Shown piece by piece: positions 6,632 to 60,918 of a stretch of 64,000 nucleotides of DNA. Positions within the stretch are counted from its first letter, which is position 1. Each line of letters opens with the position of its first letter. This DNA comes from Escherichia phage ECP2301: the sequence record OR880646.1; one strand, given 5' to 3'. Made by a program: the position numbers and the translations under genes. The notes below the pieces were generated by a model that searched no databases, had not been told where the DNA came from, and saw only the letters and a program-made list of their open reading frames with translations.

Positions 6632-6646
6632 TCTTTGACGATTTAA

Positions 6647-6676
6647 GGGACCTTCGGGTCCCTTTAGTTGTTTTTA
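6647..6676 (+). terminator. rho-independent terminator after gene 23
   Basis: GGGACC-TTCG-GGTCCC hairpin then T-rich run. Confidence 0.8.
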
Positions 6677-6679
6677 TGG

Positions 6680-6687
6680 TATAAATA
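6680..6687 (+). promoter_or_regulatory. late promoter TATAAATA for gene 24
   Basis: exact TATAAATA between terminator and gene 24. Confidence 0.75.
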
Positions 6688-6714
6688 AATCATATAAACC
6701 AAAAGGAAAGCGCA

Positions 6715-11751: not shown

Positions 11752-11770
11752 TATTACATGGTATTTAGAC

Positions 11771-13282
11771 ATGACTGACATTAAAGTACATTTTTATGAT
11801 TTTAGTCACGTGAGAATTGATTGTGAAGAAAGTACATTTCATGAACTCCGTGATTTCTTTAGCTTTGAAGCTGATGGGTATCGTTTTAATCCGAAATACA
11901 AATATGGTCACTGGGATGGACGAATCCGTCTTTTAGATTATAATCGCCTTCTTCCATTCGGTTTAGTCGGGCAAATTAAAAAGTTCTGCGATAACTTTGG
12001 CTATAAAGCCTGGATTGACCCACAGATTAACGAAAAAGAAGAATTATCAAGAAAAGATTTTGATGAATGGCTTTCTAAATTAGAAATCTATTCAGGAAAT
12101 AAAAGAATTGAACCGCATTGGTATCAAAAAGATGCAGTGTTCGAAGGATTAGTTAATCGTCGTAGAATTCTTAATCTTCCAACATCCGCAGGTAAATCTT
12201 TAATTCAAGCTTTGCTTGCTCGGTATTATTTGGAAAATTATGAAGGTAAAATTCTTATCATTGTTCCAACAACTGCTCTGACAACTCAGATGGCTGATGA
12301 CTTTGTTGACTATCGTTTATTCAGTCATGCAATGATAAAGAAAATTGGCGGTGGAGCATCAAAAGATGATAAATATAAAAATGATGCACCAGTCGTTGTT
12401 GGTACATGGCAAACTGTAGTAAAACAACCGAAAGAATGGTTCTCACAGTTTGGAATGATGATGAATGATGAATGCCATCTTGCTACAGGAAAAAGTATTT
12501 CATCTATCATATCAGGTTTAAATAACTGTATGTTTAAATTTGGTTTGTCTGGTTCATTACGTGATGGCAAAGCTAATATCATGCAGTATGTTGGAATGTT
12601 TGGCGAAATATTTAAGCCAGTAACGACTTCTAAATTAATGGAAGATGGACAAGTAACTGAGCTAAAAATTAATAGTATTTTTCTTCGCTATCCCGATGAG
12701 TTCACTACTAAATTAAAGGGAAAAACTTACCAAGAAGAAATAAAAATTATCACTGGACTCAGTAAAAGAAATAAATGGATTGCTAAATTAGCTATTAAGC
12801 TTGCACAAAAAGATGAAAACGCTTTTGTCATGTTTAAACACGTATCGCACGGTAAAGCTATTTTCGATTTAATTAAAAATGAATACGATAAAGTTTATTA
12901 CGTATCAGGGGAAGTTGATACCGAAACACGCAACGTAATGAAAACCTTAGCTGAAAACGGTAAAGGAATAATTATAGTAGCTAGTTATGGTGTATTTTCT
13001 ACCGGTATTTCAGTTAAAAATCTGCATCACGTTGTTTTAGCGCACGGTGTTAAATCTAAAATTATTGTATTGCAAACAATAGGTCGCGTATTACGTAAGC
13101 ATGGTTCTAAAACAATCGCAACAGTCTGGGACCTCATAGATGATTGCGGTGTTAAGCCAAAATCTGCTAATACGAAAAAGAAATACGTTCATTTGAACTA
13201 TCTTTTAAAACACGGCATTGATCGTATTCAGCGCTATGCAGATGAAAAATTTAATTACGTAATGAAAACAGTTAATTTATAA
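11771..13282 (+). CDS. uvsW: UvsW DNA/RNA helicase
   Basis: 503 aa; helicase-like motifs (NLPTSAGKS Walker A-type, DECH box in MMNDECHLA); late promoter upstream. Confidence 0.9.
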   Translation: MTDIKVHFYDFSHVRIDCEESTFHELRDFFSFEADGYRFNPKYKYGHWDGRIRLLDYNRLLPFGLVGQIKKFCDNFGYKAWIDPQINEKEELSRKDFDEWLSKLEIYSGNKRIEPHWYQKDAVFEGLVNRRRILNLPTSAGKSLIQALLARYYLENYEGKILIIVPTTALTTQMADDFVDYRLFSHAMIKKIGGGASKDDKYKNDAPVVVGTWQTVVKQPKEWFSQFGMMMNDECHLATGKSISSIISGLNNCMFKFGLSGSLRDGKANIMQYVGMFGEIFKPVTTSKLMEDGQVTELKINSIFLRYPDEFTTKLKGKTYQEEIKIITGLSKRNKWIAKLAIKLAQKDENAFVMFKHVSHGKAIFDLIKNEYDKVYYVSGEVDTETRNVMKTLAENGKGIIIVASYGVFSTGISVKNLHHVVLAHGVKSKIIVLQTIGRVLRKHGSKTIATVWDLIDDCGVKPKSANTKKKYVHLNYLLKHGIDRIQRYADEKFNYVMKTVNL

Positions 13283-21809: not shown

Positions 21810-21813
21810 CAAT

Positions 21814-21844
21814 GGGGACCGAAAGGTCCCCATATTTTTATTTA
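21814..21844. terminator. bidirectional terminator after gene 54
   Basis: GGGGACC-GAAA-GGTCCCC hairpin then T-rich run. Confidence 0.8.
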
Positions 21845-22128
21845 CGGAATGAAATGAAAGCAGCAACTGAAGCAACTAAACTGTCTTCAATATAAACTTC
21901 AATTTTTACCGGAGCTTCTGACTCAAATTTGCCTGTTACTACACCTTGGAAAATGCTTTCAGTCTGTTCTGGCTTTGAAAAATTTTCAGAAGGAAAAATT
22001 CCGAACTTTTTATCTGTTCCAAAAATTTTGATAAATTCATCATAAACTGCTTCATTAAAAGCGTTATCAGCAGGAATAACGCCTTCAACTACAAGTTCTT
22101 GACCTAAAAAGCGTAAAGAAGATTTCAT
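21838..22128 (-). CDS. hypothetical protein downstream of alt genes
   Basis: 96 aa ORF with GAGGA SD, preceded by early-promoter cassette. Confidence 0.6.
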   Translation of the reverse strand: MKSSLRFLGQELVVEGVIPADNAFNEAVYDEFIKIFGTDKKFGIFPSENFSKPEQTESIFQGVVTGKFESEAPVKIEVYIEDSLVASVAAFISFRK

Positions 22129-22135
22129 TTTGTGT

Positions 22136-22189
22136 TCCTCATGTTATGTCAGTAAGATTACTATAACACAACACGAGGGACTTGTAAAC
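22136..22189 (-). repeat. 54 bp exact repeat, copy A (early promoter + leader + SD)
   Basis: identical to 38114-38167. Confidence 0.9.
22160..22189 (-). promoter_or_regulatory. early promoter (GTTTAC -35, TGtTATAGT extended -10)
   Basis: inside 54 bp repeat copy A, upstream of 96 aa ORF. Confidence 0.6.
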
Positions 22190-24246
22190 TACATCTTGAA
22201 CTTTTTAGACATTCCGTTGATGTTAACCAAAGAAGCCAAGATTTGAGAAACTTCGTTTTCCTCTTCTTTTGATTCTTCTACAAGGAATTGATTAAACCCA
22301 GCCATTGGACGAACTTCGCCAGTTTCCATTAGATGATCGCCATCATATACCGATTCTTCTAATTGTTCAGAAGGAGGAACGATTGTGCCTTCGATTAGAT
22401 ACTTGTTATAAGCAGTTTCTTTCATCATGTACGTGCTCACTTTATTAATCTTCAGCAAAATTCCACGCGGTAGAATAACTTCAGCTTCTGATGGAAATCC
22501 CGATAAATGACCTGGAACGATAACTTTGATTCGCTCAGCCCCTTTAATTACCATACCTACGCTAGTTTCAGCATCTTCATTCGCATAAGCAGAATGACTG
22601 CCCATATGCATTAAATCTTCAGCATCAACAGAACCTTCTCCTTCACCAGAAAATACTGCGCCGGAATCATCTAGAGCCATATAGTTTTTACCATGCTCAC
22701 CGAAGATATTTGGTTTAAGCGATGTTGATACGAAGTTCTTGAAATAGAACATTTTATTTTCAATATTATGGCGTAAAGTTTTAAAAGTAACTTCTTGTCC
22801 ACGATAAAGCGTAGTTCCTGGAGGAAGAACTGAACCTTTGGCAAAGGCAGAATCCAGCGTCTCGATGTGTTTAATAGCTCGTTCCATATATTCTTCACGG
22901 GTAGAATCTGGTTTACCCAAGAGGAACGAGTTCATTTCAACATATGAATCTGCACAATAATCTTCAATTACATCAGACTCAGCCTGAGTCAGTCCTTTTG
23001 GAGTTACTTCGGTGCTTGAGTATTCATATGCCTGAGCAGCAGATTCATTAATCAATTTATAAATGCCATTCATGACAAATTGAATAATAGCTACCTTTTC
23101 GTCTGGCGTAGCTTTAGAACCTTTAACTAAATCATTGATAATTTTCTTAATAACATCAAAGCTATTAGAAATATTAATGTCAGCGAGATCGCTCAAAATT
23201 TTATCGGTTTTATAATCAAAAAATTCTTTATTCTTTAAATATTCTTGAGAACCTTGATGTGTTATATCGCTCTGCAGTCTGATAGACGGATCACGTAAAC
23301 GCGCATGGGCCAATGCAATATGATTTCGGAAGCTTTCTAGTTCATAATCGTTAGATTTAAAACGAGAAGCACTTCTCATACCACCGATAGCTCCTTTGCC
23401 GAAGTTTGAACCAATCTGAATAACACCAGAGTTCATTGGTCCTTCTGCTTTATATACCGGAACTTTAGATTCAAACTCTTGATATTTCTTGGCAGCGAAG
23501 CTATCACCCTGTAGCGAAGCATCGACAGTAGAATATTGAGCTTGTGCTGCTAATCGACGACTAATTTTAGTTTTCTGAATAACAGCTTGATCCGTGCGCT
23601 TATCATTTTCTAAAGCAATAGAAGCAGCAACAGCAACAGCTTTAGGAACAGCATTACCTGTTTTAACATCTACATAAACATCACCAACCTTTGATTCAAC
23701 TTTTGTGAATAACTCAGTTGAAATAGGAGGTACACCTGGAATGTCTTCTAAATTGGCATTTTTACGGTAAACCATAATATATGCATACTTTTTATCATAA
23801 TCCCAGATTTCCTTTAAAAGAACATATCGACCTGCTCCTTTAGTACGTACTAAACGGTCAGCAATAACTTGCATTTGACGAGCTGCGCCATTTGTTTTAC
23901 TTTTTAGTACGCGGAATAAGCATGCATCAATTTTATACTGTTTCATTGTTTGAAGAGCAGTATCAAAAACGGCATTAATGACACCAATTGGATTTCCACC
24001 CAAGTTTTTAAGTTTAACTAATGATAGTTTCTCATTAACACCTATCATTACGATATGCATCATTTTATCGCCTGGCTTAACGTTTTTATTTGTATCACCG
24101 CCAGAGGTGTATGTACAAAATCTAAATCCAGGAAGCACGCTTTCTTCACCGGCTTGAATAGCAAAAATTTGAGGTATTTTATGCTTAGGATTTAAGTTAA
24201 CAACCGGCGCCGAAGCGCCGTCAAATAATTCTGTAATAAGTTCCAT
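22189..24246 (-). CDS. Alt-family ADP-ribosyltransferase paralogue (copy 1)
   Basis: 685 aa; N-terminus MELITELFDGAS...; C-terminal R (LYRGQ), STS (FVSTSL), ExE (EAEVILPRG) motifs. Confidence 0.8.
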   Translation of the reverse strand: MELITELFDGASAPVVNLNPKHKIPQIFAIQAGEESVLPGFRFCTYTSGGDTNKNVKPGDKMMHIVMIGVNEKLSLVKLKNLGGNPIGVINAVFDTALQTMKQYKIDACLFRVLKSKTNGAARQMQVIADRLVRTKGAGRYVLLKEIWDYDKKYAYIMVYRKNANLEDIPGVPPISTELFTKVESKVGDVYVDVKTGNAVPKAVAVAASIALENDKRTDQAVIQKTKISRRLAAQAQYSTVDASLQGDSFAAKKYQEFESKVPVYKAEGPMNSGVIQIGSNFGKGAIGGMRSASRFKSNDYELESFRNHIALAHARLRDPSIRLQSDITHQGSQEYLKNKEFFDYKTDKILSDLADINISNSFDVIKKIINDLVKGSKATPDEKVAIIQFVMNGIYKLINESAAQAYEYSSTEVTPKGLTQAESDVIEDYCADSYVEMNSFLLGKPDSTREEYMERAIKHIETLDSAFAKGSVLPPGTTLYRGQEVTFKTLRHNIENKMFYFKNFVSTSLKPNIFGEHGKNYMALDDSGAVFSGEGEGSVDAEDLMHMGSHSAYANEDAETSVGMVIKGAERIKVIVPGHLSGFPSEAEVILPRGILLKINKVSTYMMKETAYNKYLIEGTIVPPSEQLEESVYDGDHLMETGEVRPMAGFNQFLVEESKEEENEVSQILASLVNINGMSKKFKM

Positions 24247-24249
24247 GAT

Positions 24250-26346
24250 TTATCCTTGAACGAACTTGTAAGGCATGTTTGTAATATCTATGCAAGACGC
24301 AATAATTCTAAGAGATGATTCTACTTTTTGTTTAACATTTGATGAAACAAATGATGCAAAATCAACTCTGTCTTCTATTTCAATATCACCTGTCATTGCA
24401 ACTACTTCACCAGTTTCCATTAGACGGTCACCGTCATAAATTACTGATTCGGTGAGTTCTTCCGTAGTCATAACTTCAGCTTGAATGAGTTTTGTATTAT
24501 TAGATGTTGTTCCATCATTATTAGAAGCATCAGTTATTTTATTAACTTTGACCATCAATCCGCGTGGTAGAATAACTTCAGCTTCTGTTGCTATTCCGAG
24601 ACTTCCTGGATATACAACATTAACTTTATGAGCTCCATCAATTGCCCATCCTATTTGAACTTTAACGTATTCAGGATTTTCTTTATACGCTCTTATTTCG
24701 TTTGGATTAATAGTTATTCCTTCTTCATTTTTATCAACTGTCAATTCATTACGAGCTTCTGGTTCTAAAAGACCAATACCAGCATGTGTAATTCCAAAAC
24801 GTCCAAAAATGATAGGAGTTAAAGAAGTAGATACAAAATTTCTGAAATAGAACACTTTATTTTTAACTAGTGCTTCGTATATAGGAGCAGTCATACTTTG
24901 AGCACGATAAACTGTAATGCCTTCTGGTATACGGTCACCATTTTCAAAAGCTGAATCTAAGTTATTTATAGCAGATTCAATTTCTTTTTCACTCATTACA
25001 TCATATCGTTCTGGATTGTAGCGTCCTAAAAGAAGATTATTGATGTCAGTATATCCTGAACCACAATACTCTCTAATGCCGCGCTTTTGTGATGGAGTAT
25101 ATTTAGAACCATCGCGAGCAATAGTAATATCAATCATTGGACCTGCACCAATTCCAGAAAAACTATAAATCATTCGTTTGAGGAATTTAGTTTTTGCTGC
25201 GTTCCAGGAATTTTTAGTTATTTCTTCCCAGACTTCATCTGGCTGTCCTTTACGTGTTTTATTATGTTTATCAAGCCAATTATCTTTATATTCTTCAAAG
25301 AGTTGATTAACGGCTGCTGCGTATTTCTCTAAACATTTTATTGAAGTAGTTGGTTCATTTTTAATCGCATTAAGAATTACATCTTTTATCTTTTCAGAAA
25401 CTTCATTAACCTCACTTTTTGAAAAGAATTTATAATCATAGTGAAGTTCATCTGCAGTTCCTTCGGCAATGATTTTTGCTGCCTTAGTTTTAGAAGCTAT
25501 TGAATTAATTCCAAGTTTCATTTCTTCTGCTTCGGGAATTAAAGGAGCGGTAGCAGGTTTATTGAAATTAGCTGCGGTAGATTCATACTTCTGGAATAAT
25601 TCACTTTCAAATCTAGAAGATTCTAATGATTGACTTTGTGCAATTGCTCTACGGGAAATTTTAACTTTAACGATTACAGCTTGATCAGAACGTTTATCGT
25701 TTTCTTGCGCAATAGATGCAGCAATTGCCTCATTTTTAGTTACTTGAGCTCCGGTATCTTTATTGATATAAACATCACCGACCTTCGATTCAACTTTAGT
25801 AAAGAGCTCGGTACTAATTTCAGGAACTCCTGGAATGTCTTCTAATGATACATTTTTGCGATGTATAAGAATATATGCGTACTTTTTATCGTAATCCCAG
25901 AGTTCCTTAAGAAGGACGTATCTGCCACCTGAACGACTACGGATAAGTCTATCAGCAATAAGTTGAATTTGTCGAGCTTGACCAGCAGTTTTAGACTTAA
26001 GAATACGGAGCATACAGGCATCAATTTTATACTGACGCATTGTTTGCATCGCAACAGTAAAAACTGAATTGATGTAATTAATTGGGCTTGGACCGAGACC
26101 TTTTAATTTAGCGATTGAACCTTTAGCAGTTAATGTAAAAGGAACAATATGCATCATTTTATCGCCCATCTTTAAATCGCGATTAGTATCACCTCCAGAT
26201 GTATAGGTACATAAACGAAAGCCTGGTTGTTCAATTGCGTCATCAACATGAACTGAAAAAATTTGCGGTATTTTCTTCTTTGGATTTAAGTTTGTAATCG
26301 GAAGAGTAGTATCTTCGTCAAATAATTCTGTAATGAGTTCCATCAT
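24250..26346 (-). CDS. alt: Alt ADP-ribosyltransferase (copy 2, closer to my recollection of T4 Alt)
   Basis: 698 aa; N-terminus MMELITELFDEDTTLPITNL...; R (VYRAQ), STS (FVSTSL), ExE (EAEVILPRG); late promoter upstream. Confidence 0.85.
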   Translation of the reverse strand: MMELITELFDEDTTLPITNLNPKKKIPQIFSVHVDDAIEQPGFRLCTYTSGGDTNRDLKMGDKMMHIVPFTLTAKGSIAKLKGLGPSPINYINSVFTVAMQTMRQYKIDACMLRILKSKTAGQARQIQLIADRLIRSRSGGRYVLLKELWDYDKKYAYILIHRKNVSLEDIPGVPEISTELFTKVESKVGDVYINKDTGAQVTKNEAIAASIAQENDKRSDQAVIVKVKISRRAIAQSQSLESSRFESELFQKYESTAANFNKPATAPLIPEAEEMKLGINSIASKTKAAKIIAEGTADELHYDYKFFSKSEVNEVSEKIKDVILNAIKNEPTTSIKCLEKYAAAVNQLFEEYKDNWLDKHNKTRKGQPDEVWEEITKNSWNAAKTKFLKRMIYSFSGIGAGPMIDITIARDGSKYTPSQKRGIREYCGSGYTDINNLLLGRYNPERYDVMSEKEIESAINNLDSAFENGDRIPEGITVYRAQSMTAPIYEALVKNKVFYFRNFVSTSLTPIIFGRFGITHAGIGLLEPEARNELTVDKNEEGITINPNEIRAYKENPEYVKVQIGWAIDGAHKVNVVYPGSLGIATEAEVILPRGLMVKVNKITDASNNDGTTSNNTKLIQAEVMTTEELTESVIYDGDRLMETGEVVAMTGDIEIEDRVDFASFVSSNVKQKVESSLRIIASCIDITNMPYKFVQG

Positions 26347-26366: not shown

Positions 26367-26374
26367 TATTTATA
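26367..26374 (-). promoter_or_regulatory. late promoter TATAAATA upstream of alt pair
   Basis: reverse-complement TATAAATA 21 nt upstream of alt copy 2 ATG. Confidence 0.65.
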
Positions 26375-26379: not shown

Positions 26380-26397
26380 AAAGGCCCGAAGGCCTTT
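26380..26397 (-). terminator. hairpin downstream of 62 aa ORF
   Basis: AAAGGCC-CGAA-GGCCTTT. Confidence 0.5.
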
Positions 26398-34027: not shown

Positions 34028-34260
34028 AGTACGCCATACACCCTTTGTGCTTCAACTAATCCATCAAAATCCAATTTAAGATGTGTTATTTGGTCACCAT
34101 CGCCTGGATTCACAATTACTAATACTGAACGAGGAGTTTCGGTAATAACACAAACCGATGTTTCAGGAAATCGTTCAGAAACCTTATTTACCAATTCCTG
34201 AGCAAATAGTTTAACTTTTTCTTGGAATTCTTTAACAGTAATTGGTTTTTCACTTAGCAT
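34024..34260 (-). CDS. hypothetical protein (cd-pseT cluster)
   Basis: 78 aa ORF. Confidence 0.55.
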   Translation of the reverse strand: MLSEKPITVKEFQEKVKLFAQELVNKVSERFPETSVCVITETPRSVLVIVNPGDGDQITHLKLDFDGLVEAQRVYGVL

Positions 34261-34781
34261 GTTGATCCCAGCTCCTTACTTTCAACGTTTTTAACTAATT
34301 TGACAGAAACTAATTCGGCATCTTGTGTAATCATTACCGGGCCTTCTTTATACTCTTCAAGATATTCTAGAGCTTTCTTTTTAGCTTCTTCCTTCGTATC
34401 AGTTTGAGCATAGATATAAAACATGCAACCAGTAATACCTACTACTTTCCACTTAATTTCTTTATCAGTTTTAATTTCAAATTTACTGACAGAATCATCT
34501 TTTTGAACTTCTTCGAAAAAAGAATATTCTAGCATATAAGCAATTGAAAATAACGGGCTAACTTTATAGGATTCGCCCATTACATCAACAGCTTTATACC
34601 AACAGTCATCAATTTCGCGTTTAATGCTAATAACATTTTTCGCAGGATCTATTTTTACTTTAAATGAATTTTCCCCAATAAATTGAGCAATTCGTTTATT
34701 AGCCCCACAAGTTTCATTAAAAATATCTTTATATCCAGCTTTAAAGCGATAAACCTTATCTTCTTCAAACCATTCGCTCAT
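34254..34781 (-). CDS. hypothetical protein (cd-pseT cluster)
   Basis: 175 aa ORF. Confidence 0.6.
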   Translation of the reverse strand: MSEWFEEDKVYRFKAGYKDIFNETCGANKRIAQFIGENSFKVKIDPAKNVISIKREIDDCWYKAVDVMGESYKVSPLFSIAYMLEYSFFEEVQKDDSVSKFEIKTDKEIKWKVVGITGCMFYIYAQTDTKEEAKKKALEYLEEYKEGPVMITQDAELVSVKLVKNVESKELGSTC

Positions 34782-35513: not shown

Positions 35514-36738
<1,225 letters not shown>

Positions 36739-39790: not shown

Positions 39791-40955
39791 AATATTTTTT
39801 AAAACTCATCATAACTTTATCATCAACATCATTATCAATCTGTGCTACAAGGTAAGATGACAGTTCTACTTCTTGTGGCGCGGATTGAACATTATCAGAA
39901 TTAAGATATTCACGAATCCAAGGATACGGATGTTTAACCGGAGCATCGGTAATTGGGCATGGAAGACCACACTGTTTCATACGAGATACAGTTAAGTAAT
40001 CAATAAAGCTCCACATGCTATTTGTATTTAATCCAGGAACATCGCCATCTTTAAATAAATGAACTGCCCAGTCTTTTTCTTGACGGTTAACTTCCATGAA
40101 AATATCAACTGCTTCTTGTTCACACTCTTGGGCAATTTTAACCCACTCATCACCATCAGTGCCAAGTTGAAGTTGACGAATAATATATTGGGTGCCTTTA
40201 AGGTGAAGCTGCTCATCACGTGCAATGAACTTCATAATCTTGGCATTACCTTCCATGATTTCCATGTTTTTATGGAAGTTAAAGGTACATGCGAAAGATA
40301 CATAAAAACGAATAGCTTCCAATGCGTTGATTACATGAAGGCAAAGATAAAGAGATTTCATTAGTGCTCGTTTAGTACATTCAACAACTTTGCCTAACTC
40401 TTCTTTACGAAATCCTTCTGATAAAATTCCTTCATAATCTTCAACAGCATTCTGATATTCACGAGTTTTAACTAGAACATCATCGTAGTAGCGACCAATG
40501 GACTCGGCACGTTTCATAATATCTTCATCTAATACAATCTCATCAAATACCTTTGACGGATCAGTATAAAGATTTCGCATAATATGAGTGTATGAACGGC
40601 TGTGAATAGTTTCACTAAAAGTCCATGTAGCAACCCATGTATCAAGGCTTGGGTCTGAAATTAATGACATAAGTACAGCAGACGGTGCACGACCCTGAAT
40701 GCTATCTAGAAGTGATTGATACTTCAAGTTATTAGTAAAAATATCTTGCTGATACTGGGGAAGCTTGTTAAATTGTGCAGCATCCATCATCAAGTTTACT
40801 TCTTCAGGACGCCAGAAAAATGATAATTGCTTTTCGGTTAAATCTTCAAAAACTTTATGGCGTTGAATATCATAACGCGCAATACCAAGACCTGAACCGA
40901 AGAACATAGGTTCTTTTAAAACATCAACTGGATTTGTATTAAAAACTGTGCTCAT
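39786..40955 (-). CDS. nrdB: ribonucleotide reductase small subunit, uninterrupted
   Basis: 389 aa continuous ORF. Confidence 0.95.
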   Translation of the reverse strand: MSTVFNTNPVDVLKEPMFFGSGLGIARYDIQRHKVFEDLTEKQLSFFWRPEEVNLMMDAAQFNKLPQYQQDIFTNNLKYQSLLDSIQGRAPSAVLMSLISDPSLDTWVATWTFSETIHSRSYTHIMRNLYTDPSKVFDEIVLDEDIMKRAESIGRYYDDVLVKTREYQNAVEDYEGILSEGFRKEELGKVVECTKRALMKSLYLCLHVINALEAIRFYVSFACTFNFHKNMEIMEGNAKIMKFIARDEQLHLKGTQYIIRQLQLGTDGDEWVKIAQECEQEAVDIFMEVNRQEKDWAVHLFKDGDVPGLNTNSMWSFIDYLTVSRMKQCGLPCPITDAPVKHPYPWIREYLNSDNVQSAPQEVELSSYLVAQIDNDVDDKVMMSFKKYF

Positions 40956-41006
40956 AAATTTTCCGCTTAGTTAATAGATAGTGACTCGTCCGTGAGTCAA
41001 ATTATA

Positions 41007-43271
41007 TCATAATTTACAGGATGAACAATCTTCAGCTTTTGGAGTTTCTATTTCATAATCATCAGTACCAGAACCGTCACGGGTATTATGATAATAGAAA
41101 TTTTTTCCGCCAAAATACCAAAAATACAAAAGGTCATCAATCATTATTGACATTGGAACCTTTCCTTTTGGAAAAATCTGCGGGTCATAATATGTATTCG
41201 CTGAAGCTGATTGACATACCCATTTAAGCATAATAGCTACTTGCGTAAGATAAGGTTTATTACCTTTCTTAGCTAATTTCCACGTATAATCATAGAGGTC
41301 TATGTTATGCTCAATATTGGGCACGACTTGATTAAAGGAACCCTCTTTTGATTCTTTAACAGAGACTGGTCCACGTGGAGGCTCGATACCGTTTGTACTG
41401 TTAGAAACTTGGGAAGATGACTCACATGGCATAAGTGCTGATAATGTGCTATTACGGATGCCAAAGAGCTTAAGGTCTTCCCGCAGCGACGACCAGTCAC
41501 AAACGTATTTTGGAGCTGCGATTTGGTCAATCTTTTTATTGTACCAGTCGATAGGTAATTCGCCTCGAGACCAACGAGTGTCTGAATAATATTCGCAAGG
41601 TCCTTTTTCTTTGGCGAGCTTAATGGATGCTTTAATGAGTCCATACTGTAATCTCTCAAATAGTTCATGTGTTAAATCGTTAGCATCTTCATAAGAAGCA
41701 AAATTACTTGCCAGCCAAGCTGCATAGTTAGTAACACCTACACCAAGGTTTCGACGCTTTTTAGCTTTTTCTGCTTCAGGAACTGGATATCCTTGGTAGT
41801 CCAAAAGATTATCAAGAGCACGAACTTGGACTTCTGCCAATTCATTAATTTTATCTTGGTCTTGCCAGTCAAAGTTATCTAACACAAATGCAGATAATGT
41901 ACACAATCCAATTTCAGCATCAGGACTATTCACATCATTTGTTGGAATAGCAATTTCACAGCACAAGTTGCTCTGACGAATAGGTGCCTTTTCACGAATA
42001 AACGGAGTATAGTTATTCGTATTATCTATGAACTGTACATAAATCCTTGCTGTTCCTGAGCGTTCAGTCATGAGTAATTCAAACAGTTCACGGGCTTTAA
42101 TACGCTTTTTACGAATATTAGGGTCTTTTTCTGCGGCTTCGTATAATTCACGGAAACGGTCTTGGTCTTTAAAATAAGAATAATAAAGCTCGCCACCCAT
42201 TTCATGCGGACTGAACAAAGTAATGTAATCGTTCTTTCCGAATCGTTCCATCATTAGGTCATTCAGTTGAACGCCATAATCCATATGACGGATACGGTTT
42301 TCTTCTACGCCTTTGTTATTTTTCAAAACGAGAAGATTTTCAACTTCCAAATGCCAAATAGGATAATAAGCAGTAGCAGCGCCGCCACGAATTCCGCCCT
42401 GTGAGCATGATTTAACTGCAGTCTGAAAATGTTTCCAAAAAGGAATAACACCAGTATGGCGTACTTCACCTGTGCCAATCTTAGAACCTTCGGCACGAAT
42501 CATACCAACGTTAATACCAATTCCAGCGCGTTTGGAGATATATTCAACAATTGAAGCAGAAGCCTTATTGATAGACTTTAATGAATCACCTGCTTCAATA
42601 ACAACGCATGAACTAAACTGCCGAGTTGGAGTACGGCAACCAGCCATAATAGGAGTTGGTAATGAAATCTGTCGAGTAGATACTGCTTCATAAAAACGAA
42701 TAACGTGTTTTAATCTATCAACAGGTTCATCTTGATGCAATGCCATTCCAATAGTCATAAATGCAAACTGTGGAGTTTCATAAATTTGACCAGTGGTTTT
42801 ATCTTTAACTAGATATTTTTCTTTTAATTGCATCGCCCCGGAATAAGTAAATTCCATATCCCGCTCGTGCTTAATTTTTGATTCTAAAAATGTAATTTCT
42901 TCGGCAGAATATTTTGACAACAATTCAGGGTCGTATTTACCTTCATTTACACAGTAAGAAATATGGTCAATAAATGAACGTGGTTCATACTGCCCGTAAA
43001 CATGCTTACGAAGAGCGAACATTAAACAGCGTGCAGCTACATATTGATAATCAGGCTCTTCAACTGAAATAGAATTCGCAGCAGCCTTAATTACAATGGT
43101 TTGAATGTCATCAGTTGTCATTCCATCACGGAGATATGATTTAATATTTTCATATAATTCATAAGGATCTACAGATGTTCCTTCAGCTGCCCAAGATAAA
43201 ACTTTAATAATTTTTTGCGGGTCAAAGCTCTGAGAAACACCACTACTTTTGATAACATTAATTAATTGCAT
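41007..43271 (-). CDS. nrdA: ribonucleotide reductase large subunit
   Basis: 754 aa ORF. Confidence 0.95.
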   Translation of the reverse strand: MQLINVIKSSGVSQSFDPQKIIKVLSWAAEGTSVDPYELYENIKSYLRDGMTTDDIQTIVIKAAANSISVEEPDYQYVAARCLMFALRKHVYGQYEPRSFIDHISYCVNEGKYDPELLSKYSAEEITFLESKIKHERDMEFTYSGAMQLKEKYLVKDKTTGQIYETPQFAFMTIGMALHQDEPVDRLKHVIRFYEAVSTRQISLPTPIMAGCRTPTRQFSSCVVIEAGDSLKSINKASASIVEYISKRAGIGINVGMIRAEGSKIGTGEVRHTGVIPFWKHFQTAVKSCSQGGIRGGAATAYYPIWHLEVENLLVLKNNKGVEENRIRHMDYGVQLNDLMMERFGKNDYITLFSPHEMGGELYYSYFKDQDRFRELYEAAEKDPNIRKKRIKARELFELLMTERSGTARIYVQFIDNTNNYTPFIREKAPIRQSNLCCEIAIPTNDVNSPDAEIGLCTLSAFVLDNFDWQDQDKINELAEVQVRALDNLLDYQGYPVPEAEKAKKRRNLGVGVTNYAAWLASNFASYEDANDLTHELFERLQYGLIKASIKLAKEKGPCEYYSDTRWSRGELPIDWYNKKIDQIAAPKYVCDWSSLREDLKLFGIRNSTLSALMPCESSSQVSNSTNGIEPPRGPVSVKESKEGSFNQVVPNIEHNIDLYDYTWKLAKKGNKPYLTQVAIMLKWVCQSASANTYYDPQIFPKGKVPMSIMIDDLLYFWYFGGKNFYYHNTRDGSGTDDYEIETPKAEDCSSCKL

Positions 43272-43828: not shown

Positions 43829-44688
43829 TTACACCGCCATCTTTCCTTTAATTGGCGGGTGAGATACGTAGTTGTTAAGAACAAAATTATGTGGCTTTGC
43901 GAATTGACTCAACCAAAATACCTGTGATTCTGTGTCCCATTCATCAAATTCATCTGGAAATTTTAATTGTAATTCGCATAAATCCATAGGTTCACGACGC
44001 AAAAGTTCTTTACATTGTTCTACGTGATTCATATAGATATGAGTATTACCACCAGAAAATATCAAATCTCCTGGAATAAGATTACACATCTTAGCTACAA
44101 TATGAACTAACGTAGCATATGATGCAATATTAAATGGAAGACCGAGGAAAACATCTACCGAACGTTGATACCACTGCAAATCCAAATAGCCATTACGTAC
44201 GTTAAATTGATAGAACATATGACAAGGCGGTAATGCCATATATTTAAGTTCAGCTGGATTCCATGCAGAAACAATTTGACGTCTATCATTTGGCAATTTT
44301 TTAATACGATCAACAACTTCTATAATTTGGTCTACACCGCCAAAATCACGCCATTGTTTTCCATAAATTGGACCAAGTTCACCGCTATGGTATCCTAAAT
44401 CTTTTGCTTGATTTTCGTAATTTTCATCCCAGACTGTTTTGCCTTGAATTAATGAATCGTGTTGAATTAATCGCAAATCATTGACATTTGTGCTTCCCGA
44501 TAAAAACCATATTAGCTCAGCAATGCAAGCTTTCCAGGCGAGCTTCTTAGTCGTTACTGCAGGAAAACCTTTAGTTAAATCCCAGCGTAATTTAGTACCG
44601 AACAAAGCAATTGTTCCTGTGCCTGTTCGGTCATCGGTTTCATAACCGTTTTCCAGGATATCTTTAATTAAAAATTGGTATTGTTTCA

Positions 44689-44689: not shown

Positions 44690-45717
<1,028 letters not shown>

Positions 45718-45733
<16 letters not shown>

Positions 45734-46077
45734 TGAAAAGGGTCATGAGCATATCCGCTAGCGTCAATCATTTTAACTAAAGTTACCATTCCTCTGTTAA
45801 CTGCTTGTGCGATTTCATCAAAAACTTCGTCACTATCGTCGTAAAGGTCATTAAAAAGTTCTAATACGTTCTTCTGAACTTTTAATTTACGGCCGACAAT
45901 TTCGCCTACAGTAAATTCGTTTCCGCCAAATCCAGCGTAAAATGTAATTACACCCATTAACTGGCTTTCACGGGAATCTATGTCGTGTGATAAATTAATA
46001 AAAGCCGTCCCAGGCGCGGTTTTAAGTTGGCAACGAATTTTTACTTGGGTAATTCCAGTTATATGAATGTTAGACAT
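45718..46077 (-). CDS. hypothetical protein
   Basis: 119 aa ORF. Confidence 0.5.
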
Positions 46078-48091: not shown

Positions 48092-48157
48092 TTTTATTTC
48101 CTTTTTAATTTAATTAACAGTTGGTGCTATGACGATGTATGACCTCATAGCTGGTCA
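48092..48157 (-). promoter_or_regulatory. gene 32 translational operator: H-type pseudoknot plus A/U-rich gp32-binding tract
   Basis: mRNA sense TGACCAGCTATGAGGTCATACATCGTCATAGCAC (48125-48157) gives two interleaved stems GACC/GGTC and GCTATGA/TCATAGC; A/U-rich tract with TTAAA repeats follows to the ATG. Confidence 0.8.
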
Positions 48158-48174
48158 GTGAGATAATTATAATA

Positions 48175-48182
48175 TATTTATA
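48175..48182 (-). promoter_or_regulatory. late promoter TATAAATA for gene 32
   Basis: reverse-complement TATAAATA upstream of gene 32 leader. Confidence 0.6.
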
Positions 48183-48190
48183 ATAAGCAA

Positions 48191-56180: not shown

Positions 56181-59100
56181 ATGGCTACTTTAAAACAAAT
56201 ACAATTTAAAAGAAGCAAAACCGCAGGTGCACGTCCTGCTGCTTCAGTATTAGCCGAAGGTGAATTGGCTATAAACTTAAAAGATAGAACAATTTTTACT
56301 AAAGATGATTCAGGAAATATCATTGATTTAAGCATTTCCGCTGGCGGTAATATCAGTGGAAATATCACACAAACTGGAGATTATTTACAGAACGGTACAT
56401 ATAATCTCAATGGAAATCAGTTTGTTTATGCAGGAAAATATATTGAATTTTTACCTAAAACAGCTGGTAATGGTGCATGGGCAAATCAACACCTAAATAA
56501 AGCTCCTATCTTTACAGATTTGAGCTCAACTACTTCCGTTTCAGAATATCATCCGCTGATTAAACAACGCTATAAAGATGGAACTTTTTCTGTTGGTACG
56601 TTAGTAAACGAAGGAAGTTTTAAAATTCATTATATCAATGAATCGGGAACTTCAAAATACTGGACATTTCGTAGAGATGGTGGATTTGTTGTTGATACAG
56701 GAAGTTTGACAGTAACAGATGGAAATATTTCTGCTTCTGGTAATATTAATTCGGCTACTGGGGTAGTTTCTGCTCCGCAAATCAATACAAAGACTATAGT
56801 ATTTGACACAAAAGCATTTGGACAATACGATTCACAATCATTAGTTCAATATGTTTATCCTGGAACAGGTGAAACAAACGGAATCAATTACCTTCGCAAA
56901 TTCCGTGCTAAATCTGGCGGTACAATTTATCATGAATTGGCTTCTGCACAAACCGGAAAAAGTGATGAACTTTCTTGGTGGACTGGTAATACAGCGGTTA
57001 ATAAACAAATGGGCCTTCGCAATGATGGTTCTTTAGTATTACGACGTTCACTTGCAATTGGTACAATTACAACAGATGAAAACATCAATAACTACGGTTC
57101 TACTGGAGCAATGGGTGAATGTTATATAGTTATTGGTGATGCATCAACAGGTTTATCATACAAAAAAACTGGGGTATATGACTTAGTTGCTAGTGGTCTT
57201 TCTGTAGCATCTATTACTCCTGATAGTTTCCGTAGTACGCGCAAAGCGATTTTTGGACGATCAGAAGACCAAGGTGGTACGTGGCTTCTTCCTGGCCAGA
57301 ACGCAGCTCTTCTTTCAGTTCGTACTGAAGTTGACCAAAATAATAACGGAGATGGTCAGACACATATTGGCTATAATAGTAATGGTAAATTTTATCATTA
57401 TTTTAGAGGCAGAGGAAGAATGGCCATTGGAATGGCCGAAGGACTTATTGTTGAACCAGGAATTTTAGATATTAAAACTAGTTCAAATACATTAAGTCTG
57501 CGTGCTGATGGTACCGTCGCTTCTGTTCAAACATTAAAGCTTAATAACGGATTATATTTTAATAGTGATGGAACTAATGCTTCTCTAATTTTTAAAGCAG
57601 CTTCAGGTATTGATGGTACTAAACAAATACTTTGGGAAGGTGGTACTCGTGCTGGACAGAATAAGAGTTATGTAACTGCTAAAGCTTGGGGAAATTCATT
57701 TAATTCATCTGGCGATCGTAATCGTGAGACGGTTTTTGAAGTATCAGATGGACAAGGATATTATTTTTATGCTCAACGTGTAGCTCCTGCACCAGGTTCA
57801 ACAACTGGCGCAGTTCAATTTAGAGTTGCTGGAGCATTATTAACTTCTGGCGGTATTACATCATCTGGTTCTATTGTTACTGAATCTAGTTTAGTTGCTA
57901 ATAATGGATTATCTGTAAACGGACAAGCTAAATTTGGCGGAACTGCTGATGCATTAAGAATTTGGAATGCTGAATATGGTGCCATTTTCCGTCGCTCAGA
58001 AGCAGCATTACATATTATCCCGACTCCTAAAGATGCTGGTGAAAGTGGTGGAATAAGTAATCTCCGCCCGCTAAGTATTAGTCTTAATAATGGTATGGTA
58101 CAAATGCGCCATTCTGTTACGTTAGGAGATGATGGCGCTGGCGGTAATATGATTACTGTGGACAATGACAGTAAGCGTGTTGTATTAGCAAGTCATAGTC
58201 GTATTGCTCCTAATTTCAGAATGCAATTAGGACAAAATGCTTATATAGATATTGAGGCTTCTGATGGAGTTCGCCCAGCAGGTTGTGGTTCATTTGCATC
58301 TCAGAATGACGTAAATGTCAGAGCTCCAATTTATATGAATATAGAGCGTACTGCTGCTTCTGAATATATTCCCATTGTTAAACAACGGTATGTAAATGGT
58401 GATAGTACTTATTCTATTGGCACATTAATTTCTCAAGGAGACTTCCGCGTTCATTATCACCAGGGCACGAGTACTACCGGTACTGATTTAAGCTGGGAAT
58501 TCCGTCGCAATGGTGATTTCCGCGCGGCAGGTAAAATTATTGCCGGTGCTGCTACTTTTGGCACTGATGGTAATATTACCGGTGGTTCCGGTAATTTTGC
58601 TAACCTAAATACGACTTTAAACCGTAAAGTTAATTCTGGATTTATTACCTACGGTTCAACCGAAGGATGGTATAAGTTTGCAACAGTAACAATGCCACAG
58701 AGCGCAGCTACAGCAACATTTACATTGACTGGTGGTAGTGGGTTTAATGATGGATTAAATACCCAATGTTCTATAAATGAAATTGTTCTTCGTACCGGTA
58801 ATAACAATCCTCCCGGATTAAATGCTGTATTATATAATCGTTCATTAAACGGATTTCGTAATATAGCTTATATTAATACACATGGGGATACATACGACAT
58901 TTATATAAATGTCGGTCCTTACGCAAACCAAATGACTTGTTCTTGGAATGCGTCGGAGCAAGTTACCGTTGAAGTCGTTGGCATTAATGGAACAACTCAA
59001 TCTCCTGTAGAAGAATTACCTTCTGGTTATGCTACTGGACAAGTTGCTAATGTTCTTAATAACTTAGTTGATCGCGGTAAAGTTAAGCGTTACGAAGCTT

Positions 59101-60062
59101 ATTCTGAAATAGCTATTAATAATCAAACTGGCATTCGTATTAGAAGCAACGGCGATAAAACTGGTTCTGTTGCTACAATGCTACGAAATGATGGCGGTAG
59201 TTTTTATATTCTGTTTACAGATAAAAATGCCACCGATGGCGCAGCAACTGTTAACGGTGATTGGAATAGTAAACGTCCTTTCGCAATTAACTTAACAACC
59301 GGCGAAGTGTTAATGAATAATGGCATAGCTGTTCGCAGCGCTGCTTTATTCTACAACAGCATAAACGTCAAAGATAATGGTTCTATTAACTTTGATAAAT
59401 CGGGTGCGAACCCGAGAAACATGCGTATATTCCATGCTGGTGATGGAACTCGTGGTAACCGTATTGAAATTGCTGATGAAACTAACTATATTGCTTACTT
59501 TGAAAAAACTCCAGGTGGAGCTAACCGCTTTGTAGTAAATAATGCTACTGTAGCTGGTGTTAACCAAATGAATTCATTTGGTATTAATATCAATAACGCA
59601 CTTGGTGGAAATAGTATAGCGTTTGGTGATAATGACACCGGTATTAAGCAAAATGGCGATGGATTATTAGACATATATGCGAATGGCGTACAGACTTTCC
59701 GTTTCCAAAACGGTGATTTGTACTCATACAAAAATATAAATGCTCCAAACGTTTATATTCGTTCTGATATTCGTTTAAAATCCAACTTTAAACCTATCGA
59801 AAATGCACTCGATAAAGTTGAAAAACTTAACGGTGTCATTTACGATAAAGCTGAATACATCGGTGGAGAGGCAATTGAAACTGAAGCGGGTATTGTGGCT
59901 CAAACACTGCAAGACGTTTTACCAGAAGCTGTCCGTGAAACAGAAGACAGTAAGGGTAATAAAATACTCACTGTTTCTTCTCAGGCCCAGATTGCTCTTC
60001 TGGTTGAAGCTGTGAAAACACTTTCTTCTCGTGTAAAAGAACTTGAATCTAAACTTATGTAA
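56181..60062 (+). CDS. 37: long tail fibre distal subunit with C-terminal intramolecular chaperone domain
   Basis: 1293 aa; C-terminal ~99 aa beginning SDIRLK (59763-60059) resembles autoproteolytic chaperone domains. Confidence 0.9.
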   Translation: MATLKQIQFKRSKTAGARPAASVLAEGELAINLKDRTIFTKDDSGNIIDLSISAGGNISGNITQTGDYLQNGTYNLNGNQFVYAGKYIEFLPKTAGNGAWANQHLNKAPIFTDLSSTTSVSEYHPLIKQRYKDGTFSVGTLVNEGSFKIHYINESGTSKYWTFRRDGGFVVDTGSLTVTDGNISASGNINSATGVVSAPQINTKTIVFDTKAFGQYDSQSLVQYVYPGTGETNGINYLRKFRAKSGGTIYHELASAQTGKSDELSWWTGNTAVNKQMGLRNDGSLVLRRSLAIGTITTDENINNYGSTGAMGECYIVIGDASTGLSYKKTGVYDLVASGLSVASITPDSFRSTRKAIFGRSEDQGGTWLLPGQNAALLSVRTEVDQNNNGDGQTHIGYNSNGKFYHYFRGRGRMAIGMAEGLIVEPGILDIKTSSNTLSLRADGTVASVQTLKLNNGLYFNSDGTNASLIFKAASGIDGTKQILWEGGTRAGQNKSYVTAKAWGNSFNSSGDRNRETVFEVSDGQGYYFYAQRVAPAPGSTTGAVQFRVAGALLTSGGITSSGSIVTESSLVANNGLSVNGQAKFGGTADALRIWNAEYGAIFRRSEAALHIIPTPKDAGESGGISNLRPLSISLNNGMVQMRHSVTLGDDGAGGNMITVDNDSKRVVLASHSRIAPNFRMQLGQNAYIDIEASDGVRPAGCGSFASQNDVNVRAPIYMNIERTAASEYIPIVKQRYVNGDSTYSIGTLISQGDFRVHYHQGTSTTGTDLSWEFRRNGDFRAAGKIIAGAATFGTDGNITGGSGNFANLNTTLNRKVNSGFITYGSTEGWYKFATVTMPQSAATATFTLTGGSGFNDGLNTQCSINEIVLRTGNNNPPGLNAVLYNRSLNGFRNIAYINTHGDTYDIYINVGPYANQMTCSWNASEQVTVEVVGINGTTQSPVEELPSGYATGQVANVLNNLVDRGKVKRYEAYSEIAINNQTGIRIRSNGDKTGSVATMLRNDGGSFYILFTDKNATDGAATVNGDWNSKRPFAINLTTGEVLMNNGIAVRSAALFYNSINVKDNGSINFDKSGANPRNMRIFHAGDGTRGNRIEIADETNYIAYFEKTPGGANRFVVNNATVAGVNQMNSFGININNALGGNSIAFGDNDTGIKQNGDGLLDIYANGVQTFRFQNGDLYSYKNINAPNVYIRSDIRLKSNFKPIENALDKVEKLNGVIYDKAEYIGGEAIETEAGIVAQTLQDVLPEAVRETEDSKGNKILTVSSQAQIALLVEAVKTLSSRVKELESKLM

Positions 60063-60064
60063 AA

Positions 60065-60080
60065 GAGGGCTTCGGCCCTC
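60065..60080 (+). terminator. hairpin between genes 37 and 38
   Basis: GAGGGC-TTCG-GCCCTC immediately before gene 38 SD. Confidence 0.5.
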
Positions 60081-60092
60081 TAAGGATTTTTA

Positions 60093-60887
60093 ATGGCAAT
60101 TGTAGGTGTTCCTGGCTGGATTGGTGAATCTGCCGTGAATGAAACTGGACAACGTTGGATGGATGCTGCAATGAAAGCAGTTCGTGTTTCAGTTCCTGGT
60201 TGGATGAGCTCAATGGCCGGACAATCTAAAGAAGTATATTACAGCATTGGTGCTAGCAATTCTTATAATAAAGACACACTAATAAATTATCTCAAATCTC
60301 AAGGTAGTACTCCTGTTGTTGTTACTATTACTGGTAACTTAGTTTCTTCATCTGCCGGGCAACCTTGCTTAGATTTTCCTAGTTCATTAACTAATGCTTA
60401 TGTAACGCTTATTATAAATGGCGGTGTAACAGTATATGGTCGCGGAGGACGCGGCGCGCAAGCGGGAAACCAGGCGGGTGAAGCTGGTGGTACTGCAATT
60501 AACAATGGTATAGGTACTCGTCTACGAATCACTAACAATGGAGCAATCGCTGGCGGCGGCGGTGGTGGTGGCGCCCAATCAACTGATAATGGATGGGGAG
60601 GTAAATATGTTTCTGGCGGTGGCGGCGGACGTCCTTTCGGAGCTGGTGGTAATAATGGAGCAAAAGCTCCGGGTGCATCAGCATCTTTAACATCTCCAGG
60701 CGCTGGCGGAAAAATGTATTCCGGCGTTGGATACTACGGTGGTGACGGTGGTAATGTTGGTGAACGAGGTAAGGATGCGGTTAGATTGAACGGCTATTCG
60801 AACTCACCTGGCGCAGCAGGTAAAGCTGTTACTGGTAATGCTCCAACTTGGACTAAAGTTGGTACAATATATGGTGCAAGAGTATAA
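60093..60887 (+). CDS. 38: tail fibre adhesin with glycine-rich motifs (T2-type gp38)
   Basis: 264 aa; repeated GGGGG / GxGG motifs separated by variable segments. Confidence 0.85.
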   Translation: MAIVGVPGWIGESAVNETGQRWMDAAMKAVRVSVPGWMSSMAGQSKEVYYSIGASNSYNKDTLINYLKSQGSTPVVVTITGNLVSSSAGQPCLDFPSSLTNAYVTLIINGGVTVYGRGGRGAQAGNQAGEAGGTAINNGIGTRLRITNNGAIAGGGGGGGAQSTDNGWGGKYVSGGGGGRPFGAGGNNGAKAPGASASLTSPGAGGKMYSGVGYYGGDGGNVGERGKDAVRLNGYSNSPGAAGKAVTGNAPTWTKVGTIYGARV

Positions 60888-60918
60888 TTTTGAATAAATA
60901 TCCTTAAAAGGAGGGTCT

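Follow-up and report, generated by a model that had tools for sequence, protein, structure and literature searches.

The tandem alt paralogues of Escherichia phage ECP2301: a usual T-even arrangement that probably encodes two packaged ADP-ribosyltransferases

The closest described system is Alt of phage T4 (gpAlt, NP_049811), a packaged NAD+--arginine ADP-ribosyltransferase that is present in about 40 copies per mature head and enters the cell with the DNA. To our knowledge, NAD-dependent ADP-ribosylation of host proteins, including RNA polymerase alpha, is known for T4 Alt only, which represents the allele called A2 below. T4 Alt is also the only family member in which the cleavage sites of the prohead protease gp21 have been mapped (ITE-6 and LTE-619; PMC5694885). 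T4 further carries two small ORFs, alt.-1 and alt.-2 (NP_049810 and NP_049809), which its record describes as duplicating the initial portion of alt. Duplications of alt were noted by Nolan et al. 2006, and the duplicated genes ORF187c/188c of phage 44RR can be likened to the pair described here. The pair itself is already known: many GenBank and RefSeq records list 'Alt-like RNA polymerase ADP-ribosyltransferase (x2)', and a 2026 paper on the paralogues, which reported 43.3% identity and proposed diversification of their targets, interpreted them as we do (PMC13600099).

Here we analysed the alt locus within a 64,000-nucleotide stretch of Escherichia phage ECP2301 (OR880646.1; hereafter the window). 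Two adjacent minus-strand ORFs of 685 and 698 aa lie 3 nt apart, exactly where an earlier note made from the letters of the DNA had placed them (Table 1). The three nucleotides, ATC, separate the stop codon of the upstream gene (copy A) from the ATG of the downstream gene (copy B). Copy A almost certainly starts at its second ATG, at 26343 (697 aa, MELITE...), because the gene is annotated so in T2, T6 and RB14 and the T4 'ITE-6' cleavage numbering implies it. The gene order in the window and its relatives is gp54, alt.-3, the alt genes, alt.1 and DNA ligase gp30; T4 Alt occupies the same locus (alt.1/gp30 to alt.-3/gp54) and likewise has the late-promoter consensus, the R/STS/ExE residues and the gp21 motifs. 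The Alt-like pairs of T2, T6, RB14, AR1, SHFML-11/6phi13, IME339 and others show the same order and 3-nt spacing, with 94-99% DNA identity to the window. Nothing material distinguishes the window from the annotated T-even pairs, except for the allele that accompanies copy B, which is of the T4-type A2 in AR1 and of a type termed A1 in the window. Tandem pairs at this locus also occur in JS10 and KM16, where ligase and alt.-3/gp54 flank two PF26846 + PF03496 genes. No tRNA genes or Rfam matches were found in the window.

Table 1 Coordinates of features at the alt locus, numbered from the first letter of the window.
Feature	Position	Strand	Remarks
alt.-3	21838..22128	-	96 aa, DUF5498 / PHROG 1739; neighbour outside the pair
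alt.-3 own sigma70-like promoter, TTTACA-N17-TATAGT	22160-22188		Overlaps copy B stop codon; equivalent place annotated in Lutter
Copy B ORF	22189..24246	-	685 aa; second full-length Alt-family ADP-ribosyltransferase
9-bp direct repeat CTAAAAAGT, downstream copy	22200..22208	-	Near copy B 3' end; right breakpoint of T4-type deletion
Copy B L-E-E motif, aa 629-631, then S	22354..22362	-	Aligned with T4 Alt C-terminal gp21 site LTE-619
Copy B catalytic residues	22480..22803	-	Arg482 22801-22803; Ser507-Thr508-Ser509 22720-22728; Glu587-x-Glu589 22480-22488
Copy B N-terminal block, aa 1-236	23539..24246	-	PF26846; 68% identical to copy A block
9-bp direct repeat CTAAAAAGT, upstream copy	23899..23907	-	Inside copy B; left breakpoint of T4-type deletion
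Copy B I-T-E motif, aa 4-6	24229..24237	-	Identical to T4 Alt N-terminal gp21 site ITE-6
Copy A ORF	24250..26346	-	698 aa from first ATG; alt orthologue by position, adjoins alt.1 and DNA ligase gp30
Copy A LTE motif	24448-24456	-	Counterpart of T4 Alt C-terminal gp21 site
Copy A catalytic residues (698-aa numbering)	24577..24906	-	Arg481 24904-24906; Ser506-Thr507-Ser508 24823-24831; Glu588-x-Glu590 24577-24585
Copy A N-terminal block, ~aa 1-236	25636..26343	-	PF26846 (Tevenvirinae_ADPRT); 99% identical to T4 Alt block
Copy A I-T-E motif	26326-26334	-	Same as T4 Alt ITE-6
T4-type late-promoter consensus TATAAATA	26367..26374	-	~20 nt upstream of copy A start
GC-rich hairpin, AAAGGCC-TTCG-GGCCTTT	26380..26397	-	Just past alt.1 stop codon, precedes late promoter

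The late promoter claimed upstream of the pair is present as the consensus TATAAATA, which occupies the same place in 11 of 11 loci compared (the window, T4, T2, T6, RB14, AR1, PST, KAW1E185, Lutter, pSe01 and NIC06P2). The hairpin that precedes it sets the late alt genes apart from the early/middle unit upstream, and at the corresponding position the records of KAW1E185 and Lutter mark a terminator. Since a search between copies A and B found no promoter or terminator, the predicted late promoter upstream of A presumably drives both genes; copy B is apparently translationally coupled to copy A. A second occurrence of TATAAATA, at 24963-24970 inside the A-I-N-N codons of A1, was considered as a separate late promoter for B and is treated as coincidence, because it is missing in Lutter and in A2 alleles.

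A full-length BLASTP alignment of copies A and B gives 41% identity (E = 8e-163). PHROG 802 'Alt-like' covers both from end to end (1.6e-272 for copy A), and both exceed the gathering score of Pfam PF03496 (ADPrib_exo_Tox; 1.4e-37 for A and 3.5e-20 for B). Each gene consists of four parts, namely a ~235-aa N-terminal domain, a divergent helical middle, a C3/VIP2-type R-S-ExE mono-ADP-ribosyltransferase (ART) domain and a C-terminal tail. The description of the pair as Alt-family enzymes that both retain R, S-T-S and E-x-E stands, with every quoted motif in place: YRAQ (aa 480-483), FVSTSL (504-509) and EAEVILPRG (588-596) in A, and YRGQ (481-484), FVSTSL (505-510) and EAEVILPRG (587-595) in B. 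In a 21-sequence family alignment, R482, S507-T508-S509 and E587/E589 of copy B are invariant columns, and HMMER alignments bring YR and ExE onto the YR and (E/Q)xE of C3, CDTa and CPILE-a. The best structural match of copy B is Vis, an arginine-specific ART; model confidence is low in the STS-to-ExE region. A PDB sequence search with B as sole query and an NCBIfam search with four proteins each returned 0 matches.

Vis, C3bot, VIP2, iota Ia / CDTa, CPILE-a and Certhrax have the catalytic fold and R-S-ExE residues (QxE in C3) in common with the Alt pair. However, these C3-like and binary toxins are secreted, use other delivery domains, are 14-25% identical to the Alt pair, and lack PF26846, head packaging and gp21 processing. 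Binary clostridial-type toxins (VIP2 / iota Ia / CDTa) additionally possess a duplicated ART fold, with an inactive N-terminal adaptor, and a separate pore-forming B component, an arrangement absent from the window proteins. ModA and ModB of T4 are set apart as well, being early proteins of ~200 aa without a head-associated domain, whereas the window proteins have ~690 aa, PF26846 and a late-promoter consensus.

The earlier note was right about the conservation of an N-terminal block between the copies, but the block measures about 232-236 aa rather than ~250. Its assignment to PF26846 relies on precomputed calls, made for cluster P0001 (99% identical) and for every full-length relative. In copy B it is a predicted compact alpha/beta domain (pLDDT 86.8), for which no convincing relative was found among solved structures. 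Beyond the block, the middle regions have diverged as described, to 13-25% identity, and the stretch from STS to ExE is 16% identical. Recent gene conversion was rejected as the cause of the conserved block, because A and B are saturated at synonymous sites within it as well (dS ~1.1). Older homogenisation is indicated solely by tree conflict, strong in JS10 (100%) and weak in Tequatrovirus (53%); the two N-terminal blocks of JS10 pair together (100% bootstrap) and not with their positional orthologues. The shared block appears to have a history unlike that of the rest of the gene. We also considered the N-terminal domain as a general carrier of other effectors and rejected this, as a phmmer search of 1.84 billion representatives yielded only 69 clusters. 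Eight of ten distant representatives scanned carry PF03496, and the other two have no Pfam match.

The earlier note correctly gave T4 a single alt gene, the second copy there being the remnant alt.-1/alt.-2, and implied that an intact second paralogue is unusual. This does not hold: a full-length copy B is carried at this locus by T2, T6, RB3, RB14, RB33 and AR1, and in all by 401 of 499 matching phage records. The note would itself have called the pair ordinary had the reference T-even genomes carried it, and essentially they do, with T4 as a deletion remnant. The T4 ORFs are what a 1,699-bp deletion between two 9-bp direct repeats left of copy B, together with a frameshift that splits this remainder into two small ORFs; the 1,699 bp between the CTAAAAAGT repeats are missing from T4, Lutter and pSe01, and the junction is found in 91 of 498 records (T4 and 90 others). 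The DNA of alt.-1/alt.-2 aligns at 96-97% identity with the opening 348 nt of copy B and with a few nt at its end, and the PHROG families based on these ORFs match B better than A. Their sequences indicate descent from a full-length gene, not a partial duplication. The tandem pair, with copy B intact as in the window, is the normal, ancestral and already annotated T-even state, and laboratory T4 is the exception, because most of its second copy has been deleted.

T4 also differs in its remaining copy. The window copy A is the A1 allele, common to T2, T6, RB14 and Lutter, whereas T4 Alt is A2. Compared in 40-column blocks, the two proteins are 12-35% identical in the middle and 48-78% identical in the ART domain. 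Between A1 and A2, synonymous sites are saturated in both of these parts (dS 1.4 and 1.07, respectively), against a dS of 0.14 for the N-terminal block. Copy A of the window is an allele of ancient origin, separate from that of T4. With the N-terminal block left out, copy B and T4 Alt share only 33% identity; given this low identity and the divergence of A2 from A1, the biochemistry of T4 Alt need not transfer to the window proteins. The allele combinations seen are A1+B, A2+B, A1+remnant, A2+remnant and A::B chimeras, the last including single-gene forms, of which the PST-type carry the B body only. The second gene can be lost, as seen in T4, in the 90 further records with the T4 junction and in the single-gene chimeras.

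Strong purifying selection acts on both copies, with dN/dS of 0.04-0.05 for B and 0.05-0.09 for A1 orthologues. In the body phylogeny the downstream copies group together (99% bootstrap), as do the upstream copies (94%), and the downstream body of JS10 shares 53% identity with B; the downstream copies are orthologous in three or more lineages of the Tevenvirinae. A copy B that is decaying or catalytically dead, and persists only as a structural part of the core or through hitch-hiking, is a most improbable and already disfavoured explanation, to which its weaker Pfam score and its deletion or fusion in some lineages would lend themselves. It is also unlikely that B merely duplicates the job of A, altering RNA polymerase alpha and whatever else A modifies, with more enzyme injected. 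Such redundancy would suit the likeness of the copies in architecture, promoter, catalytic residues and processing motifs, the tolerated loss of B in T4 and the PST-type chimeras with the B body alone. A pure dosage duplicate, however, would be expected to remain similar or decay, whereas the bodies are only ~30% identical with saturated synonymous sites, the A and B lineages are each conserved separately across genera (dN/dS ~0.05), and conservation is lowest in the helical middle and the STS-to-ExE stretch.

We therefore regard it as probable that A and B are ancient tandem T-even Alt paralogues, both of them packaged and injected ARTs with distinct targets. Both proteins would be synthesised late and incorporated into the prohead core, where gp21 would cut them at I-T-E (residue 6) and after the E of L-x-E-S (~residue 631); they would then be injected together with the DNA, and each would ADP-ribosylate arginines on its own set of host proteins. 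Both gp21 motifs are invariant, or nearly so, across the Alt family alignment, and the predicted mature copy B would span aa 7-631 (69.1 kDa), leaving a 54-aa C-terminal propeptide. Since purifying selection acts on both copies and both prohead-protease motifs are kept, copy B most likely acts as a second arginine ADP-ribosyltransferase that is packaged in the capsid, injected and directed at targets of its own. Separate target sets are suggested by the divergence of the middle region and STS-ExE loops, the one basis for this part of the model, and the substrate diversification put forward in the earlier note is a reasonable inference. In the literature library searched for copy B experiments or virion proteomics, nothing specific to the second paralogue was found.

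T4 survives without copy B, so the gene is not needed in the laboratory; its retention in ~80% of relatives suggests that it most likely brings a benefit on certain hosts or against certain defences. Strong conservation of a gene that is dispensable in the laboratory host would also fit a copy B that modifies something other than protein arginine (nucleic acid, or attachment of NAD-capped RNA as by ModB), or that acts mainly as a counter-defence effector and not as a transcription modifier. Some R-S-E ARTs do use non-canonical substrates, and T4 ModB RNAylates proteins (bioRxiv 10.1101/2021.06.04.446905; review PMC9503650). We consider this quite unlikely, as the E-x-E motif and the structural match to Vis point to protein arginine and no positive sign of another substrate was seen.

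Beyond the reading of A and B as two packaged ARTs with distinct targets, it is conceivable, though doubtful, that the alt locus works as a two-slot 'effector cassette'. The conserved N-terminal head-delivery domain and C-terminal propeptide would serve as recombination handles, between which the ancient, highly divergent A1, A2 and B 'warheads' (middle and ART domain) would be exchanged, fused or dropped, in the manner of polymorphic toxin loci. This possibility draws on the occurrence of all combinations, the jump in A1-A2 dS from 0.14 to 1.4 on crossing the block boundary, and the conflict between N-terminal and body trees. Low-identity Foldseek matches alone place the N-terminal fold before zeta toxin, deaminase and ParB/Srx in unrelated large phages, weakly suggesting that it may front other effector types and so extend the cassette reading.

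As a discovery, the tandem pair carries little weight. Its significance lies in showing that the reference phage T4 is atypical at the alt locus, where it lacks copy B and has another copy A allele than T2, T6 and the window phage; because of this allelic difference, knowledge of Alt targets from T4 is not simply transferable. Copy B, present in ~80% of Tequatrovirus records and across genera, offers an easy and well-defined target for studies of host takeover or counter-defence.

The tandem Alt-family pair in the window is real and was correctly identified by the earlier note, yet it is ordinary and already known. The observation is confirmed by two adjacent minus-strand ORFs, with the positions and spacing that the note had reported, by their identity as Alt-family ADP-ribosyltransferases, by the quoted motifs, all of which were found, and by domain matches and a late-promoter consensus upstream of the pair. 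Copy A, the upstream gene beside alt.1 and DNA ligase gp30, is the alt orthologue by position, and copy B is the full-length downstream paralogue next to alt.-3. The two are 41% identical end to end (BLASTP, E = 8e-163); 3 nt (ATC) separate the copy A stop from the copy B start, and AAGGA lies 7 nt 5' of the copy B ATG. The true start of copy A is most likely the second ATG at 26343, giving 697 aa. Both copies exceed the gathering score of Pfam ADPrib_exo_Tox (1.4e-37 for copy A, 3.5e-20 for copy B), and PHROG 802 'Alt-like RNA polymerase ADP-ribosyltransferase' covers both over their full length. The N-terminal block that they share is conserved as claimed, although it extends over about 232-236 aa rather than ~250 aa.

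What did not stand is the suggestion that such a pair is out of the ordinary, since the same pair occurs in every reference T-even genome checked, T4 alone excepted. Of the 499 phage records that match copy B, 401 have it at full length (megablast coverage of at least 80%), among them T2, RB3, RB14, RB33 and AR1; T6 carries it too. For copy A of the window type, 316/538 records have the full length. The order gp54, alt.-3, B, A, alt.1, gp30 is identical in T2, T6, RB14 and AR1, JS10 (EU863409) and Salmonella phage KM16 carry tandem Alt pairs at the same locus, and many records already bear the annotation 'Alt-like RNA polymerase ADP-ribosyltransferase (x2)'. Duplications of alt were noted by Nolan et al. 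2006, among them the T4 ORFs alt.-1/alt.-2 and, in 44RR, a duplicate of full length (PMC1524935).

After alt, T4 has the small ORFs alt.-1 and alt.-2, explained in its record as an early part of alt that was duplicated long ago. The alignment identifies them as what is left of copy B. T4 and the window are 96-97% identical as far as position 23899, the match resumes at 22208, and the two matching segments overlap by a 9-bp repeat, CTAAAAAGT, that is present at both breakpoints in the window, so that T4 lacks 1,699 bp; a frameshift near codon 55 divides the rest of its copy B. The deletion junction is common to Lutter and pSe_SNUABM_01, 91/498 records cover the whole of a query that spans it, and PHROG families built from alt.-1 and alt.-2 match copy B better than copy A. 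The full-length pair thus represents the majority, ancestral state, and T4 is a deletion derivative at the alt locus.

Copy A of the window and T4 Alt are 99% identical over the N-terminal 236 aa (dS 0.14) and close in the C-terminal tail (dS 0.25), whereas dS rises to 1.4 in the middle region and 1.07 in the ART domain, with 12-78% identity by block across these two regions. On these sequence comparisons, copy A of the window is not the T4 Alt allele, and we refer to the window type as A1 and the T4 type as A2. A1 accompanies copy B in the window, T2, T6 and RB14 and the alt.-1/alt.-2 remnant in Lutter, while A2 accompanies copy B in AR1 and the remnant in T4 and pSe01. The body of the JS10 upstream copy (the protein beyond the N-terminal block) shares 78% identity with A1 and joins it at 100% bootstrap. 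Three comparison phages carry a single, chimeric A::B alt gene (see table), and the early crossover in Yersinia phage PST makes it a natural 'B-only' phage with a B-type catalytic body alone. Database clusters P0003-P0007 show several crossover points within the N-terminal block. The allele combinations, chimeras and cluster crossovers indicate that the alt locus is recombinationally active, via its conserved ends.

Both copies are under strong purifying selection, with dN/dS between orthologues of 0.04-0.05 for copy B and 0.05-0.09 for A1. Synonymous divergence between A and B has reached saturation throughout, N-terminal block included (dS at least 1.07), and dN is 0.28 in that block versus 0.65-1.08 elsewhere. 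In the neighbour-joining body tree, downstream copies join B (99% bootstrap) and upstream copies join A (94%), a grouping by position that places the duplication before the Tequatrovirus, JS10 and KM16 lineages. The N-terminal block tree disagrees, pairing the two JS10 blocks at 100% bootstrap; in this block within-genome paralogues share 66-68% identity and positional orthologues only 45%. The JS10 blocks (L012 2913-7124) are 66% identical to each other and 45% to their window positional orthologues, and for the JS10 bodies the relation is reversed (78% and 53% to the window orthologues, 31% to each other). These sequence patterns point to past homogenisation, or to exchange confined to the N-terminal block; the same pattern inside Tequatrovirus is weak (bootstrap 53%).

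As a segment of a Tequatrovirus (T4-like) genome, the window runs colinear with T4 from gene 18 to motA (blastn), and its 4.9-kb alt locus is closest to Shigella phage ESh26 (99%). The late promoter position is kept in 11 of 11 loci compared. A second exact TATAAATA inside copy A, ~720 nt upstream of the copy B start, encodes A-I-N-N of the A1 allele; it recurs in T2, T6, RB14, KAW1E185 and NIC06P2, and is probably coincidental, since it is missing from Lutter and the A2 alleles. Directly downstream of copy B lies alt.-3 (96 aa, DUF5498); T4 escapes the CmdTAC defence system with C-terminal extension mutants of Alt.-3 (PMC11618068). Elsewhere, the window is without every T4 homing-endonuclease or intron insertion of the span (segD, segE, the nrdB intron with I-TevIII, mobE, the td intron with I-TevI, and segG; blastn against T4 99000-168903 and T4 annotation). 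The distal long-tail-fibre region (gene 37/38 equivalents) is 67-69% identical to T4 or unalignable, and this low or absent alignment suggests a receptor-binding tip or adhesin type different from that of T4.

Coordinates of features in the window and in the comparison loci
Feature	Sequence	Position	Strand	Remark
Copy A	window	24250..26346	-	ORF, 698 aa counted from first ATG
Copy B	window	22189..24246	-	ORF, 685 aa
Late-promoter consensus TATAAATA	window	26367-26374	-	immediately after hairpin that follows alt.1
Internal TATAAATA	window	24963-24970	-	probably coincidental
alt.-3	window	21838-22188 region	-
alt.-3 promoter, sigma70-like	window	22160-22188	-	TTTACA-N17-(TG)TATAGT; overlaps copy B stop codon
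Bidirectional terminator hairpin	window	21812-21833		near alt.-3
T4 insertion sites, empty	window	~6642-6703, ~11757-11777, ~40288-40291, ~40955-41011, ~44140-44141, ~48154-48190
519 bp without T4 counterpart	window	34259-34779		cd.2/cd.3 region; blastn vs T4
313 bp without T4 counterpart	window	36418-36732		pseT/pseT.1 region; blastn vs T4
523 bp without T4 counterpart	window	45496-46020		frd.1 region; blastn vs T4
Distal long-tail-fibre region	window	~56300-60900
A::B chimera	Yersinia phage PST, L005	3501-5561		crossover ~aa 100
A::B chimera	KAW1E185, L006	3501-5558		crossover ~aa 600
A::B chimera	NIC06P2, L009	6001-8064		crossover ~aa 680

The N-terminal block corresponds to Pfam PF26846 'Tevenvirinae_ADPRT' and, among 1.84 billion representatives searched with phmmer, occurs in only 69 clusters, always in N-terminal position; of ten distant representatives scanned, eight carry PF03496 and two have no Pfam hit. 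A Foldseek search of viral models (BFVD) with model m63ddc3cf5c00 (copy B aa 1-236, window 23539-24246) gave low-identity matches (10-16%, TM about 0.4-0.58) to large, uncharacterised proteins encoded by Dickeya, Erwinia and Vibrio phages and by Agrobacterium phage Atu_ph07. Putative zeta-toxin, ParB/Srx or deaminase domains are annotated in some of the proteins matched by this model; fusions of the N-terminal fold to other effectors were unconfirmed by sequence searches (the phmmer clusters and the 10 representatives scanned).

About 40 copies of T4 Alt reside inside the head and are ejected into the host (PMC9026906), and the protein is cut by the gp21 prohead protease after ITE-6 and LTE-619 (PMC5694885). 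The copy B N-terminus, MELITELFD, is identical to that of T4 Alt, and its L-E-E|S aligns with the C-terminal gp21 site, where E631 does not vary within the family; copy A is predicted to mature to 70.1 kDa and copy B to 69.1 kDa. By analogy with Alt, copy B would be co-expressed with copy A, packaged, processed and injected, as suggested by the cleavage motifs, common late promoter and conserved N-terminal domain. Its R482, S507-T508-S509 and E587/E589 are invariant in a family alignment of 21 sequences, and the YR and ExE motifs align with the catalytic YR and E/QxE of CDTa, CPILE-a and C3 (HMMER, solved structures). Within the ART domain, A and B are least conserved in the STS-to-ExE stretch (~78 aa, 16% identity), where structure prediction has low confidence. 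Through divergence of this stretch and the middle region, copy B may act on a different set of targets.

Experimental work on copy B was not found in the literature searched. A 2026 paper describes two paralogous Alt-like proteins, 43.3% identical, in 6phi13 and SHFML-11, and suggests a wider target range for them (PMC13600099); SHFML-11 copy B has 95.9% DNA identity to the window. The finding is of modest interest: T4 is atypical at the alt locus, and the window carries two uncharacterised genes there, copy B and the A1 allele.
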